DNA of 64,000 bases from Escherichia coli (GTDB lineage Bacteria; Pseudomonadota; Gammaproteobacteria; Enterobacterales; Enterobacteriaceae): assembly GCF_003018255.1 (NCBI RefSeq), contig NZ_CP027440.1; one strand, 5' to 3'. Under the pieces are notes generated by a model, which worked only from the letters and a program-made list of their open reading frames with translations, was not told the origin of the DNA and ran no database searches. Within the stretch, counting starts at the first letter, position 1, and every line of letters starts with the position of its first letter. Both the position numbers and the translations under genes were made by a program. This document shows positions 1-6,587 of the stretch, piece after piece.

Positions 1-1068
<1,068 letters not shown>

Positions 1069-1077
1069 TAAAGACAA

Positions 1078-1110
1078 GGCGCAACCTTCACGGGTTGCGC
1101 CTGTGTTTTT
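1078..1110. terminator. Rho-independent terminator between convergent mdtK and ydhQ
   Basis: GC stem ggcgcaacc/ggttgcgcc followed by tgtgttttt directly after mdtK stop. Confidence 0.55.
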
Positions 1111-2365
1111 ACGCAGGCTGGAGCGTTGCGCCAATCCCGTCTTCGTCTGGCTGTAGTTTCAGTGCGTTACACAGAGTTTGCCGACTGGCATCTGTTATCT
1201 CAACGTGTATATCACCAGTAACTTCCCCTTTCACATTGATGAAGTCAGGTGAAATTTCTTTCGCACTGGTTTGCAGGCAAATCGCTCCCTCTCCGCGCAG
1301 GCGTTTCACTTTCAGTTGCACATGCGTTGCCGCACCAGTGATTAGCCACAGTTTTCCGCCATTTAGATTGATGCTACCAACACTGAAAGTGACACTGTCA
1401 CCTTTTACCGTACTGCCGTCGAGAATCAATACACCGCCCTGCTGTACAGTAATCGTTGATTGTTGCAGATCTGCGCCATAGCCAATAATCATTGAAGCGC
1501 CGTCCAGTAATGCAACACTACCGGTCAGTTCAACCGGTGCGCGATCTTCCTCTACGACAAAATTTTCGTCCGCGCTGGTGGGTGACAACAGGATGACTGT
1601 CCCACCTTGTATTACCGCATTTTCCAGCGTACCGGCATGCACTTCAGCCCGACCACCCACATTAACGGACAGGTTTTGCGTCTTACCGGAACTGTAGAGC
1701 TGAAGACCATCCGTCCCCAGACGATAAGTGGATCCATTCTCAACAATAGTGTCAGAGTCTTCACCACCGAGATTATTCATGGTGCCACCAGCAAGCAATG
1801 TATCACTGGCTTTCCCCGCCAGCATAAAAACGCCGCCCTGATTAATCTCACAATTGCTGGCTTCCCCACCTGGATACACCAACAATTCACCACCTTCATC
1901 TACCACGACCGCTGAGGTTGTCCCATTGACCAACAGGCCACCCTCTTGATCGAGAATAATTTTTTCCGCGCGATGGCCTTCCAGTACACGCAGGTTACCG
2001 CCATTTTCCAGCAACAAACCGCAGGCATAACCTTTATCAACGCTGAATTCACCTTCGGGATGGCGGCCATTAACCGTAGCGAGCGTAGAGAGACTAATTG
2101 CGCCTCCCTCGGACTGAACAATATCTGTGGCAATGGCACCGTCGCTGACCGATAGCGTGCCATTGTTGCCGTACTGTGTGCATTTGGCGATCCCACCGGT
2201 TGCCACTTTCAACCAGCCAGCCCCCGTGACCACGGTATTTTCGGCTCTTCCGCCAGCTTCAACAATTAACTCACCTTCAGTAAGTTGCGTCGCGCCAATG
2301 ACCTCGCCGGTCTTAACAATTTGCACGTTCCCGTCGCTCATCAAGTTTTTCGCATCAGATCCCAT
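1109..2365 (-). CDS. ydhQ: Autotransporter-adhesin-related beta-helix repeat protein, 418 aa
   Basis: ORF 1109..2365 minus; ATG at 2365 with AGGA-type RBS upstream; Gly/Thr/Val-rich degenerate repeats; position next to mdtK and valV. Confidence 0.85.
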   Translation of the reverse strand: MGSDAKNLMSDGNVQIVKTGEVIGATQLTEGELIVEAGGRAENTVVTGAGWLKVATGGIAKCTQYGNNGTLSVSDGAIATDIVQSEGGAISLSTLATVNGRHPEGEFSVDKGYACGLLLENGGNLRVLEGHRAEKIILDQEGGLLVNGTTSAVVVDEGGELLVYPGGEASNCEINQGGVFMLAGKASDTLLAGGTMNNLGGEDSDTIVENGSTYRLGTDGLQLYSSGKTQNLSVNVGGRAEVHAGTLENAVIQGGTVILLSPTSADENFVVEEDRAPVELTGSVALLDGASMIIGYGADLQQSTITVQQGGVLILDGSTVKGDSVTFSVGSINLNGGKLWLITGAATHVQLKVKRLRGEGAICLQTSAKEISPDFINVKGEVTGDIHVEITDASRQTLCNALKLQPDEDGIGATLQPA

Positions 2366-2618
2366 GATTTATTCCTTTGCTGCATCTGTGTGCCTTTATT
2401 GCTACCTAAGTGTAAAGGCTACGGAGGATTTATCCACGACAGATTTTGAGATGGTGGCAAACAACTCTGTTTAAACTCTGATACACGGATTATTGGGTTG
2501 TATCTGATGTAAATGCGATCCTGAATAAAAATCGCCCTTGCAAATCAACAAAATATAGCCAATTTGCTTAAAAGCTCTGCAAACGGTCGAAATAGCGCAG
2601 AAAATTACGTTTTGCCTC

Positions 2619-2647
2619 TTGCCACCTTCCCACTCTGCCGCTAATAT
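2619..2647 (+). promoter_or_regulatory. Sigma70 promoter of the valV-valW tRNA operon
   Basis: TTGCCA, 17-nt spacer, TAATAT, then GC-rich discriminator tcgtcccc about 25 nt before the tRNA 5' end. Confidence 0.5.
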
Positions 2648-2673
2648 TCGTCCCCGTTGTCACCTACAACGTT

Positions 2674-2750
2674 GCGTTCATAGCTCAGTTGGTTAGAGCA
2701 CCACCTTGACATGGTGGGGGTCGTTGGTTCGAGTCCAATTGAACGCACCA
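2674..2750 (+). tRNA. valV: tRNA-Val (anticodon GAC), 77 nt, encoded CCA
   Basis: Sequence GCGTTCATAGCTCAGTTGGTTAGAGCACCACCTTGACATGGTGG...CGCACCA recognised as tRNA-Val; anticodon loop cttGACat. Confidence 0.95.
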
Positions 2751-2938: not shown

Positions 2939-3244
2939 ATGGCAACTTTGTTACAACTTCATTTTTCTTTCAATGGCCCATTTGGCGACGCAATGGCTGA
3001 GCAGCTTAAACCGCTTGCTGAGTCGATTAATCAGGAACCTGGTTTTCTGTGGAAGGTATGGACAGAAAGTGAAAAGAACCACGAAGCCGGTGGGATCTAC
3101 CTTTTTACTAATGAAAAAAGCGCCCTTGCCTATCTGGAAAAACATACTGCCCGACTGAAAAATCTCGGCGTTGAGGAAGTTGTCGCCAAAGTTTTCGATG
3201 TCAATGAGCCACTTAGTCAAATCAATCAGGCAAAACTCGCCTGA
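2939..3244 (+). CDS. ydhR: Putative monooxygenase-like small protein, 101 aa
   Basis: ORF with AAGGAGAA RBS 6 nt upstream; sequence and position match YdhR. Confidence 0.85.
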
Positions 3245-3369
3245 CAGAATTTAATCAAGGGCGGTTAGCGCCCTTTTCATCCCTGTCTGAAATTTCTCAA
3301 ATTCTAAAAATCTCAACCAAACTTATCTGATAACACTAAATTCGAAAGAATGCGTACAGGTAAGTAACA

Positions 3370-4980
3370 ATGAAAAAAATTGCTATTGTGGGTGCCGGGC
3401 CTACGGGGATCTACACCTTATTCTCGCTTCTACAGCAACAAACTCCACTTTCTATTTCTATCTTCGAGCAGGCTGATGAAGCCGGTGTCGGGATGCCATA
3501 CAGTGATGAGGAAAACTCAAAAATGATGCTGGCAAATATTGCCAGTATTGAAATACCGCCGATTTATTGTACGTATCTCGAATGGCTACAAAAGCAAGAA
3601 GCCAGCCATCTCCAGCGTTATGGCGTTAAAAAAGAAACCTTGCACGATCGTCAGTTTTTACCGCGAATTCTGCTGGGCGAATATTTCCGCGATCAATTTT
3701 TACGATTAGTAGACCAGGCACGACAGCAAAAATTTGCAGTGGCTGTTTATGAATCATGCCAGGTTACCGATCTGCAAATTACAAATGCTGGCGTCATGCT
3801 CGCTACAAATCAGGATTTACCCAGCGAGACGTTTGATTTAGCGGTGATCGCCACGGGTCACGTCTGGCCTGATGAAGAAGAAGCAACCCGAACGTATTTT
3901 CCCAGCCCGTGGTCAGGCCTGATGGAAGCAAAGGTCGATGCGTGTAACGTGGGTATTATGGGAACATCCTTGAGCGGACTGGATGCGGCAATGGCAGTGG
4001 CTATTCAGCATGGTTCGTTCATTGAAGATGATAAACAACACGTCGTTTTTCACCGCGATAACGCAAGTGAAAAGCTAAATATTACGTTGATGTCGCGTAC
4101 GGGTATTTTACCCGAAGCCGATTTCTATTGCCCTATTCCCTACGAGCCCTTACACATCGTCACCGATCAAGCATTAAATGCTGAGATTCAAAAAGGCGAA
4201 GTGGGCCTTTTGGATCGGGTATTTAGATTGATAGTAGAGGAAATCAAATTTGCTGATCCAGACTGGAGCCAACGCATAGCCTTAGAAAGCCTGAATGTCG
4301 ATTCCTTTGCTCAAGCCTGGTTTGCCGAGCGCAAACAACGCGACCCATTCGACTGGGCAGAAAAAAATCTCCAGGAAGTCGAACGCAATAAACGAGAAAA
4401 ACATACTGTTCCCTGGCGTTATGTCATTCTGCGCCTGCATGAAGCCGTACAGGAAATTGTTCCTCATCTGAATGAACACGACCATAAACGGTTCAGTAAA
4501 GGCCTTGCCCGGGTTTTCATCGATAATTATGCGGCAATCCCTTCAGAGTCTATTCGTCGACTACTGGCCTTACGTGAAGCGGGAATCATTCATATTCTCG
4601 CCCTCGGTGAAGACTACGAAATGGAAATTAATGAGTCGCGCACCGTCCTGAAAACGGAAGACAATAGCTACTCGTTTGACGTTTTTATTGATGCCCGTGG
4701 GCAGCGTCCGCTTAAAGTGAAAGATATTCCTTTCCCTGGACTACGCGAACAATTACAGAAAACAGGGGATGAAATCCCTGATGTTGGCGAAGATTATACG
4801 CTACAGCAACCCGAAGAAATTCGTGGGCGCGTAGCGTTCGGCGCGTTGCCCTGGTTGATGCACGACCAGCCATTCGTACAGGGACTTACGGCATGTGCAG
4901 AAATTGGTGAGGCGATAGCTCAGGCGGTCGTAAAGCCTGCATCCCGTGCTCGTCGGCGTCTTTCGTTTAATCAAATGTAA
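3370..4980 (+). CDS. ydhS: FAD/NAD(P)-binding domain protein, 536 aa
   Basis: N-terminal GxGxxG dinucleotide-binding motif (IVGAGPTG); synteny. Confidence 0.85.
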   Translation: MKKIAIVGAGPTGIYTLFSLLQQQTPLSISIFEQADEAGVGMPYSDEENSKMMLANIASIEIPPIYCTYLEWLQKQEASHLQRYGVKKETLHDRQFLPRILLGEYFRDQFLRLVDQARQQKFAVAVYESCQVTDLQITNAGVMLATNQDLPSETFDLAVIATGHVWPDEEEATRTYFPSPWSGLMEAKVDACNVGIMGTSLSGLDAAMAVAIQHGSFIEDDKQHVVFHRDNASEKLNITLMSRTGILPEADFYCPIPYEPLHIVTDQALNAEIQKGEVGLLDRVFRLIVEEIKFADPDWSQRIALESLNVDSFAQAWFAERKQRDPFDWAEKNLQEVERNKREKHTVPWRYVILRLHEAVQEIVPHLNEHDHKRFSKGLARVFIDNYAAIPSESIRRLLALREAGIIHILALGEDYEMEINESRTVLKTEDNSYSFDVFIDARGQRPLKVKDIPFPGLREQLQKTGDEIPDVGEDYTLQQPEEIRGRVAFGALPWLMHDQPFVQGLTACAEIGEAIAQAVVKPASRARRRLSFNQM

Positions 4981-4985
4981 AGCTA

Positions 4986-5798
4986 TCAGCACTCAACAAA
5001 CTGATGCTGTTCATTAAGGCGATAGCGGACTCCGGCTCGAATATTGTTTTCACCTTCAATGGCGACGGCGAAGCGAACTCTTTCGCCGTCATGATATGCC
5101 AGTGCGGCGCTTCCCCCTGGCCCGAGAATAATTGAGTCGACCACGCCCGTGCTCACTATTGTTGAATCTTCACCGCTGGCAATGATGTGTACATTGTCGC
5201 CGCTGTTGGCAATTCTGGCGTTTGCGCCAAAGCTGGCGATTTGCACCAGGTCACCATTACTGGCGACATGACATCGTTCACCCAATGTACAAACGCGTAC
5301 TCGCATTCCGGTATTCGCAATCCGACTGCTATCTCCAGCGCTGCTTATCCGCGAAGAATTACCGGTTACAGCAACCCGTGCGCGTTCACCGGAGCTGCCA
5401 ATGTGACTGTTAAAGCCGACACTTCCAATCCGCACGCTATAACCCATACTGGCAATTTGCGCGGCATACCCAGCGGTTGCGATTCTGGCATTATCCTCAC
5501 AACAGCCGATGCGAGCATGATCGTCGCTGCGGGCAAACTGACTGCAAAATGCTCTCTCTCCGGGATCTGTGGCCAGTTTTTGCATAGAAGAAACTTCCTG
5601 ATGCGCGAAGTTTTCATCCGCCAGCCATTTTTTCCACGCATACTCAACCAGACTCTCCGCCCAGTCCGTATATCCTTCCTCAATCAGTGCATGATGAATA
5701 TCGGCATAACTACCGCCGCGTGGGAAATGGCGCAGAAACCAGCGATACATCACCGCTCCGATACGCCATTCTCGCAGGTCTGCTCGTGTAATGATCAT
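4986..5798 (-). CDS. ydhT: Uncharacterised protein, last gene of ydhYVWXUT operon, 270 aa
   Basis: ORF 4986..5798 minus, starts 4 nt after ydhU stop; degenerate Gly/Ser-rich repeats in central region. Confidence 0.8.
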   Translation of the reverse strand: MIITRADLREWRIGAVMYRWFLRHFPRGGSYADIHHALIEEGYTDWAESLVEYAWKKWLADENFAHQEVSSMQKLATDPGERAFCSQFARSDDHARIGCCEDNARIATAGYAAQIASMGYSVRIGSVGFNSHIGSSGERARVAVTGNSSRISSAGDSSRIANTGMRVRVCTLGERCHVASNGDLVQIASFGANARIANSGDNVHIIASGEDSTIVSTGVVDSIILGPGGSAALAYHDGERVRFAVAIEGENNIRAGVRYRLNEQHQFVEC

Positions 5799-5801
5799 TC
5801 G

Positions 5802-6587
5802 TTAGTGCCGGTGATAGCCATCGACCATGCTTTTAAAGGTTTCGTGTGGCGTACGCCCCGTGGTGCAAAGATAAAGATGACCGAAGATAAAAAAGAGGCT
5901 TATAAATGCCAGAGCAAAATGCGCCTGCAATAACCAGTATCTTACGCCAGGAAACATATCTCCCACGGCTTGCGGATAGAGACACAGCAGCCCCGTCAAT
6001 AGTAACAATGGCAGCAATCCATACATGACACCAACATAGGCGACCTGCTGTAAGGGATTAAATTTAGACTGGGTTGTTGCCGGGAAAGGATGTTCTTCCC
6101 CCTGCATAATGCCAAACAAATAGAATCGCGTTTGTTTTGCCGCTCGCTCCAGCCCCCCCTGACGACGAATGCGATAGTGGTGACCATTACCCCCAACGGC
6201 ATTGATCAGAACAAAGCCGAGCCAGCATGCCAGTAACAAAAATCCGCAAACTTCATGCACCGCAACCAGACTTTTAACCGTAGTTGCGCCCACCAGCGCA
6301 AAGTGATTTATCAGCCCACTTGCCAGCAACAATACAAAGAGTAACGCATTCGACCAGTGCCATAATCTGACCGCTTTGCTGTAAAGATAAACCTTCTCAC
6401 CATGGTCGTTGGCTGATTTCTTCACGCCACGAGCACGAAGCAAGGCATGCAGCCCCAGCACCAACCACATCCCTACCAGCAATAGTCCGGCAATGATCAA
6501 CCACACCGGCCAAAATTGGGGAGTGAACAGTGGCACATAGTTCGCCAACTGGCTCTGAAACTGTTCAGCATGTTGCGACGGGTTCAT
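5802..6587 (-). CDS. ydhU: Integral membrane cytochrome b-type subunit (PhsC/NrfD-like), 261 aa
   Basis: Hydrophobic multi-TM ORF; ATG overlaps ydhX stop (ATGA). Confidence 0.8.
   Translation of the reverse strand: MNPSQHAEQFQSQLANYVPLFTPQFWPVWLIIAGLLLVGMWLVLGLHALLRARGVKKSANDHGEKVYLYSKAVRLWHWSNALLFVLLLASGLINHFALVGATTVKSLVAVHEVCGFLLLACWLGFVLINAVGGNGHHYRIRRQGGLERAAKQTRFYLFGIMQGEEHPFPATTQSKFNPLQQVAYVGVMYGLLPLLLLTGLLCLYPQAVGDMFPGVRYWLLQAHFALAFISLFFIFGHLYLCTTGRTPHETFKSMVDGYHRH

Follow-up and report, generated by a model that had tools for sequence, protein, structure and literature searches.

The stretch of DNA analyzed here (the window) comprises 64,000 nucleotides of the Escherichia coli contig NZ_CP027440.1 and carries the gene ydhQ, the product of which resembles the passenger domain of autotransporter adhesins. 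The gene, its parts and its flanks are listed in Table 1. In the open reading frame (ORF) list of the window, the 418-aa product begins with MGSDAKNLMSDGNVQIV. The NCBIfam equivalog NF007409 (YdhQ; PRK09945) spans residues 1-418 of 418 at 938.5 bits (cutoff 830), and the Prokaryotic Genome Annotation Pipeline (PGAP) labels the gene 'ydhQ: AIDA repeat-containing protein' in E. coli genomes. A megablast search with window positions 900-2700 as the query found the ydhQ region in 5425 of 5426 complete E. coli genomes, with more than 80% query coverage in 5424, and the gene was also found in Shigella flexneri. The same segment was 99.9% identical to strain DETEC-S792 and 97.8% identical to K-12. 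The G+C content of ydhQ (51%, compared with 49% for the window) is ordinary, which argues that the gene is not a recent import.

Table 1. Coordinates of ydhQ, its parts and its flanking features in the window
Feature	Position	Strand	Basis or remark
mdtK, 3' part (MATE efflux transporter)	1..1068	plus	convergent with ydhQ
G+C-rich inverted repeat, terminator-like hairpin	1077..1102		readable on both strands; between convergent mdtK and ydhQ
ydhQ coding sequence	1109..2365	minus	418 codons plus TAA stop at 1109-1111; ORF list, NCBIfam NF007409, PGAP
Partial Pertactin/autochaperone domain, residues 329-403	1157..1381	minus	PF03212 model positions 1-78 of 121, 26.7 bits
YdhQ-specific acidic loop, residues 261-280, SPTSADENFVVEEDRAPVEL	1526..1585	minus	alignments A3 and A1; AlphaFold2 model
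Best-scoring AIDA (PF16168) module of three, residues 99-159	1889..2071	minus	Pfam
Stretch most similar to solved Ag43 passengers, residues 26-142	1940..2290	minus	phmmer against PDB, 1.7e-25; aligns to Ag43 residues 201-317
Shine-Dalgarno sequence AGGA (-11..-8, 7 nt upstream of ATG)	2373..2376	minus	in block ~2366-2420 conserved in all five lineages (alignment A4)
Tandem tRNA-Val(GAC) genes valV and valW	2674-2750 and 2755-2831	plus	divergent from ydhQ

The first-pass annotation of the window had described YdhQ as a protein built from degenerate Gly/Thr/Val/Asn-rich repeats of the beta-helix passenger type. A Pfam scan at E<=1 returned only two families, namely Pertactin (PF03212) and AIDA (PF16168), the latter in three stretches with 99.8 bits against a cutoff of 27 (8.7e-29), and the 'O-heptosyltransferase target' repeat model TIGR04415 matched with 43.7 bits against a cutoff of 30 (2e-11). 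The matches to PHROG models were to long beta-helix families of unknown function, which are probably Ag43-like. Autocorrelation of residues 1-200 peaked at lags of 18-19, 36 and 54 residues (z of about 4 against shuffled sequences), and this periodicity, together with the AIDA match, bears out the description of the repeats. They are degenerate and visible at the protein level only, and Tandem Repeats Finder (TRF) found no tandem repeats in the ydhQ DNA. The composition of the protein (G 15%, L 10.5%, V 9%, A and T 8% each, N 5%) agrees roughly with the residues that had been named, although Leu and Ala were understated. AlphaFold2, which was supplied with an 18-sequence alignment (A2) of eight orthologues and ten trimmed passenger segments, produced an all-beta model with a mean predicted local distance difference test score (pLDDT) of 91.4 and a predicted template modeling score (pTM) of 0.88, only residues 1-8 and 265-274 falling below a pLDDT of 50. 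The top Foldseek matches of the model had a probability of 1.0. Structure prediction had been proposed as a check that could have returned a fold other than a beta-helix; the model obtained is a beta-helix, and YdhQ does contain a beta-helical passenger domain. The residues most similar to the solved Ag43 passengers overlap the most conserved part of the gene. The protein is acidic, with a pI of about 4.4.

The annotation had also stated that the N-terminus lacks a hydrophobic signal sequence and that the frame upstream of ydhQ is closed, and both statements held. The maximal Kyte-Doolittle mean over 11 residues was 1.25 within the first 60 residues, and the maximal mean over 19 residues was 1.28 anywhere in the protein; no hydrophobic segment was found along the whole of YdhQ, and ESPR had no Pfam match. 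A SignalP 6.0 analysis given in PMC13101318 did not predict a signal peptide either, and YdhQ's missing leader is already in the literature. The possibility that a signal peptide is hidden behind an upstream start was rejected, since an in-frame TAA lies two codons 5' of the ATG and stop codons interrupt the other two frames within 13 and 17 codons. An identical start, Shine-Dalgarno sequence and set of closed upstream frames were observed in E. albertii, E. marmotae, Escherichia sp. MOD1-EC7003 and a deeper lineage. The beginning of the protein, MGSDAKNL, is conserved, with M1, G2, S3, D4, N7 and L8 invariant.

The C-terminal component of an autotransport system was likewise absent. YdhQ had been considered too short to carry a C-terminal translocator barrel, and PF03797 indeed gave no match to the protein at E<=1. 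The search for a missing translocator that the annotation had suggested was carried out within the 64-kb window: tblastn with five barrel-bearing autotransporters detected no barrel homology, and the homology of YdhQ to these proteins stopped at about nt 1190, the ORF ending at 1109. The spacers that separate ydhQ from its neighbors (40 nt to mdtK and 308 nt to valV) leave no room for a remnant of a translocator on the mdtK side or for an upstream exon encoding a signal peptide on the valV side. In type Va secretion, the autochaperone domain assists folding of the passenger at the cell surface. Full-length relatives showed a complete match to PF03212 (1-120), which coincides with the autochaperone model AC_1 (PF18883). 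The Pertactin match in YdhQ is only partial, the C-terminus lies 15 residues past it, and PF18883 did not match YdhQ at E<=1. The signal peptide, the barrel and a complete autochaperone domain were each looked for and none was found, which places YdhQ, by its secretion architecture, outside the class of type Va autotransporters. Lacking a leader and a barrel, and with its autochaperone domain cut, YdhQ is unable to autotransport.

Judged from its sequence, YdhQ is a homologue of AIDA-I/Ag43/TibA-type passengers and a member of its own family, NF007409; the NCBIfam models for Ag43 (NF033177) and AIDA-I (NF033176) gave scores of 88.8 and 52 bits, respectively, far below their cutoffs of 1200. 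The sole full-length relative that was collinear with nearly all of YdhQ is YejO, a core type Va autotransporter. Residues 7-396 of YdhQ align with residues 77-490 of a 771-aa form of YejO (P0103) at 31% identity, and the alignment ends after 'ITDAS'. The P0103 gene adjoins ccmH and narP, and its annotation in E. coli genomes reads 'autotransporter YejO'. The two proteins share the order of the AIDA modules, the segment 'MxNLG.D..T.V..G..Y.LG' and the start of the Pertactin/autochaperone domain. YejO, however, continues through a full Pertactin domain (414-538, model positions 2-120) to a PF03797 barrel (585-771), so that it possesses the rest of the autochaperone domain, the barrel and, at the other end, passenger sequence upstream of the aligned region, all of which YdhQ lacks. 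Conversely, the acidic loop of YdhQ (261-280) is about 9 aa longer, and YdhQ has 3-6 Cys whereas the aligned YejO passenger has none. The Cys content of YdhQ (0.7-1.4%, compared with a median of 0.5% in homologues) is a weak sign of cytoplasmic life, as 27% of the aligned segments are equally rich.

Structures of the alpha-domain of Antigen 43 (Flu) are available (PDB 4KH3, 7KOH, 7KO9 and 7KOB). Unlike YdhQ, Ag43 is exported through Sec and its own barrel and is then cleaved and displayed, and the first ~200 residues of its alpha-domain have no counterpart in YdhQ. This N-terminal part of the alpha-domain carries the self-association interface. TibA and AIDA-I, which are heptosylated and self-associating, have a signal peptide, a barrel and an adjoining dedicated glycosyltransferase gene, whereas YdhQ has none of these. 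Aligned with such relatives, YdhQ reads as an internal slice of a passenger that starts within the repeat region and breaks off after roughly two thirds of the autochaperone domain.

When 1.84 billion cluster representatives were searched exhaustively with HMMER, 535 matches were obtained at E<=1e-3. A single one was a full-length YdhQ cluster, and the next matches after it were long autotransporters with at most 38% identity; overall, the remaining matches were fragments of YdhQ or other relatives, mostly long autotransporters, with at most 46% identity. No full-length YdhQ orthologue outside Escherichia was found in this search, and a word-based search seeded with the most divergent orthologue recovered the same 25 proteins again. 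No YdhQ of E. fergusonii turned up in the homologue searches, the mdtK-valV site of that species not having been inspected directly. Three apparent orthologues of 55-72% identity (P0027, P0028 and P0079) were rejected as damaged or frameshifted translations of E. coli ydhQ. In P0028, Ser, Asn or Lys stand in place of most of the Gly and Asp/Glu residues, a pattern of systematic base damage that could be mistaken for a distant family member. Orthologues of 418 aa were present in E. ruysiae (90% identity), Escherichia sp. E4742 (87%), E. marmotae (83%) and E. albertii (80%), and one of 419 aa (72% identity) in the deeper lineage (L007 and L001; Logan SRR26188688 and SRR31578456), in which mdtK is 82.8% identical to that of the window at the nucleotide level, compared with 87.1% in E. 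albertii. Both E. albertii and E. marmotae retain the order mdtK-ydhQ-tRNA-Val-ydhR. In the deeper lineage, ydhQ lies beside mdtK and retains the valV-side spacer, the short contigs holding only those flanks.

The ydhQ gene of the window was compared with that of each lineage by the method of Nei and Gojobori (NG86). The ratio of nonsynonymous to synonymous substitution rates (dN/dS) was 0.10 against E. albertii (dS 1.12) and 0.13 against E. marmotae (dS 0.76); against the deeper lineage it was 0.06, an unreliable ratio since dS (3.3) was saturated. For comparison, the ratios of the neighboring genes were 0.06-0.09 for ydhR and 0.01-0.02 for mdtK. Among the named species, ydhQ showed no indels, frameshifts, stops or change in length, and the start codon, the Shine-Dalgarno sequence and the stop codon are conserved in five lineages. 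A neutral ORF of 1.25 kb would be expected to gain stops or indels at a dS near 1, and the fact that ydhQ has gained none argues that it is not a dead fragment. We conclude that ydhQ is under purifying selection across the genus Escherichia and is not decaying. In a sliding-window analysis, dN/dS was lowest in codons 1-150 (0.03-0.06), and the AIDA hairpin module at residues about 75-148 is nearly invariant. In the acidic loop, part of which (residues 265-274) is predicted to be disordered, 17 of the 20 positions are invariant across nine orthologues. Also conserved is the C-terminal tail KLQPDEDGIGA, which has no counterpart in the relatives. Exceptions were seen within E. coli. In strain AR_0013 (NZ_CP032204.1; L011 675-3592), the only listed genome that matched about half of the query, an ISEcp1 transposase splits ydhQ into two annotated pseudogene halves, and occasional strains have an in-frame shortened YdhQ of 370-402 aa.

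Several published data sets bear on the location and activity of YdhQ. According to a 2026 toolkit paper (PMC13101318), YdhQ was used as an 'autotransporter' anchor and named a 'leaderless autotransporter', Roux et al. 2005 being cited there for the adhesin label. In the experiments described there, a pFAST-YdhQ fusion without an added signal peptide was fluorescent in the cytoplasm and agarase was inactive, whereas surface display and higher reporter activity were claimed with a foreign signal peptide. The section that treats YdhQ does not discuss the missing barrel. Since YdhQ has no barrel, display obtained by adding a signal peptide cannot, in our view, be classical autotransport and needs leakage controls. 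In other work, YdhQ was among 17 unannotated proteins recovered by RNA crosslinking (orthogonal organic phase separation, OOPS; bioRxiv 10.1101/2023.07.03.547468), and it co-purified with EF-Tu (PMC2672614). Computational prediction makes the gene a target of CsrA, and as such it emerged from an integrative omics study (PMC5389547); the protein was quantified with a 5.5-fold change in abundance under vanillin stress (PMC6561319).

We consider it fairly probable that YdhQ is a domesticated orphan fragment of a passenger, that is, an acidic beta-helix rod that resides in the cytoplasm and has a function inside the cell. An ancestral autotransporter of the AIDA-I/Ag43/TibA type, with YejO as the closest collinear relative, would have given rise to YdhQ as an internal piece, losing from one end the signal peptide along with the initial portion of the passenger, and from the other end the final third of the autochaperone domain together with the linker and the 12-stranded barrel. 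Having no route across either membrane, YdhQ would be made and folded in the cytoplasm as a soluble, acidic, right-handed parallel beta-helix rod, and the whole genus Escherichia would have retained it at one chromosomal site under purifying selection. Such genus-wide selection at a fixed site indicates that YdhQ does something, and it is probably a working intracellular protein. Its most likely activity would be that of a binding scaffold, for which the AIDA hairpin module and the acidic loop are the candidate working surfaces. The identity, the fold, the absence of both export elements, the truncation points, the selection and the synteny come from the present analysis; the cytosolic leaderless construct, the detection of the native protein, the RNA crosslinking and the EF-Tu co-purification are taken from papers; that YdhQ functions in the cytoplasm, and which of its parts matter, we infer.

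A more specific proposal, which we regard as possible but doubtful, is that the beta-helix of a secreted adhesin has been exapted for a cytoplasmic job, perhaps one linked to RNA or translation, through the AIDA hairpin and the loop SPTSADENFVVEEDRAPVEL. Both export elements would have been lost in the ancestor of Escherichia, and the cytoplasmic job would have been gained afterwards. The link to RNA or translation draws on the hints from the OOPS recovery and the EF-Tu co-purification. These data come from high-throughput screens, however, and a protein with a pI of 4.4 is unlikely to bind RNA directly, which counts against a cytoplasmic function of this kind. Other observations weigh against a cytoplasmic role in general. 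The localization experiment relied on overexpressed fusions and not on native YdhQ. The Keio ydhQ deletion serves as a neutral control and an integration site (PMC6962156; bioRxiv 10.1101/2023.03.28.534373). Codons 300-390 reach a dN/dS of about 0.3 in the sliding window, a pattern more familiar from surface-exposed proteins, and a published scan placed ydhQ among the positively selected core genes (PMC9110714), a listing that the weak constraint in these codons may explain. The same paper states that ydhQ is needed for early adhesion, and YdhQ appears among the COG3468 proteins of vesicle proteomes (PMC10458587).

Some of these points are the ones that would favor a YdhQ that is still a surface adhesin, aids early adhesion and leaves the cell by an unconventional exit, such as a leaderless signal in the disordered N-terminus, vesicles, the barrel of another autotransporter, or BAM/TAM. 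The adhesion requirement, the vesicle listing, and the reported positive selection together with the higher dN/dS of the C-terminal third are consistent with this explanation, as are the almost invariant first 8 residues (6 of 8 positions, despite the predicted disorder) and, in PMC13101318, the higher surface reporter activity obtained with an exogenous signal peptide. We nevertheless consider it unlikely. YdhQ has neither a Sec, Tat or ESPR signal nor any hydrophobic stretch, the barrel is absent from both the protein and the window, and the autochaperone domain is cut; in the experiments of that paper, the fusion without an added signal peptide remained cytosolic with inactive agarase. Crosslinking recovery places native YdhQ next to RNA, and 'display' assays with an added signal peptide cannot separate surface exposure from leakage of the periplasm. 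At the other extreme, YdhQ could be a functionless relic of a dead autotransporter gene, with a frame that is open by chance and expressed as noise. Truncation of both ends relative to every full-length relative, with the C-terminal cut falling inside a domain, the lack of a laboratory phenotype of the deletion, and the shortened in-frame forms and the ISEcp1 insertion in occasional strains would all fit a relic. This reading is strongly disfavored, and we assign it a very small probability: dN/dS is about 0.1 at a dS of 0.8-1.1 between the named species with the frame and length intact, the start, Shine-Dalgarno sequence and stop are kept in five lineages, 5424 of 5426 genomes, including Shigella flexneri, carry the gene, and an insertion loop that is absent from the relatives is nearly invariant.

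It is hardly more probable that YdhQ stays in the cytoplasm and there engages, as a partner or decoy, the factors that act on AIDA-type passengers before export (such as chaperones, or heptosyltransferases of the Aah/TibC type), thereby modulating production of genuine autotransporters such as YejO or Ag43. The match to the 'O-heptosyltransferase target' repeat model (TIGR04415) would fit such a role, the most conserved part of YdhQ is the AIDA module common to Ag43, AIDA-I and TibA, and the closest paralogue, YejO, is also a core E. coli gene. Heptosyltransferases of the Aah/TibC type, however, belong to particular pathotypes and not to the E. coli core, and no autotransporter or glycosyltransferase is linked to ydhQ within the window.

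The ydhQ gene, its annotation and the lack of a leader are already public; the mapped truncation points, the identification of YejO as the closest collinear paralogue, the purifying selection across the genus and the conserved YdhQ-specific loop are new. YdhQ routinely appears in lists as an 'autotransporter adhesin', is by now being engineered under that name, and has its gene cited in connection with biofilms or antibiotic resistance; that label, and the conclusions drawn from it, deserve caution. A fragment of a secretion substrate held under strong purifying selection throughout a genus is a small, clean example of a secreted fold that has possibly been reused inside the cell. YdhQ is one of the remaining y-genes of E. 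coli, and what is gained is mainly a corrected annotation and a testable hypothesis of cytoplasmic function, not a new kind of system. We know of no autotransporter passenger previously shown to work in the cytoplasm, and if the exaptation proposal is true, YdhQ would be, as far as we know, the first.

The spacer between ydhQ and valV (2366-2673) contains two blocks that are kept even in the deepest lineage, one of ~125 nt beside valV (~2538-2662) and one of ~55 nt beside ydhQ (2366-2420), whereas the middle has diverged, with indels. A scan for sigma-70 promoters upstream of ydhQ gave no minus-strand match, which leaves the conserved ~55-nt block as the sole feature of note there. A published FlhDC box from genomic SELEX (gSELEX; PMC9962212) maps to window positions 2582-2623, within the valV-proximal block, and hence is more likely to relate to the promoter region of the tRNA genes than to ydhQ; control of ydhQ by FlhDC, or flagellar export, was rejected, the box being unconvincing for this gene. 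A 62-aa minus-strand ORF (2641-2829) opposite both tRNA-Val genes is not a gene but an artefact that arises because the two tRNA sequences are nearly identical. The defence-system models of PADLOC gave no match.

Two genes away from ydhQ, ydhT (4986-5798, minus strand) encodes a 270-aa product. Its central part holds about ten degenerate 'S.G...RI...G' repeats, and these point to a second small protein of the repeat or beta-helix-like kind near ydhQ. The Pfam scan of this product gave no match, although the E. albertii orthologue is assigned PF27195 (YdhT_N) in a precomputed table. The gene content beside ydhQ varies with the species. The window (2939-6587) has both ydhS and the ydhT-ydhU oxidoreductase operon; in E. 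albertii (L002 4251-5432), ydhT adjoins ydhR directly and ydhS is absent; and in E. marmotae (L004 2778-5426), ydhS is followed by DUF2767, ynhH and pykF in place of the ydhT-ydhU oxidoreductase operon.

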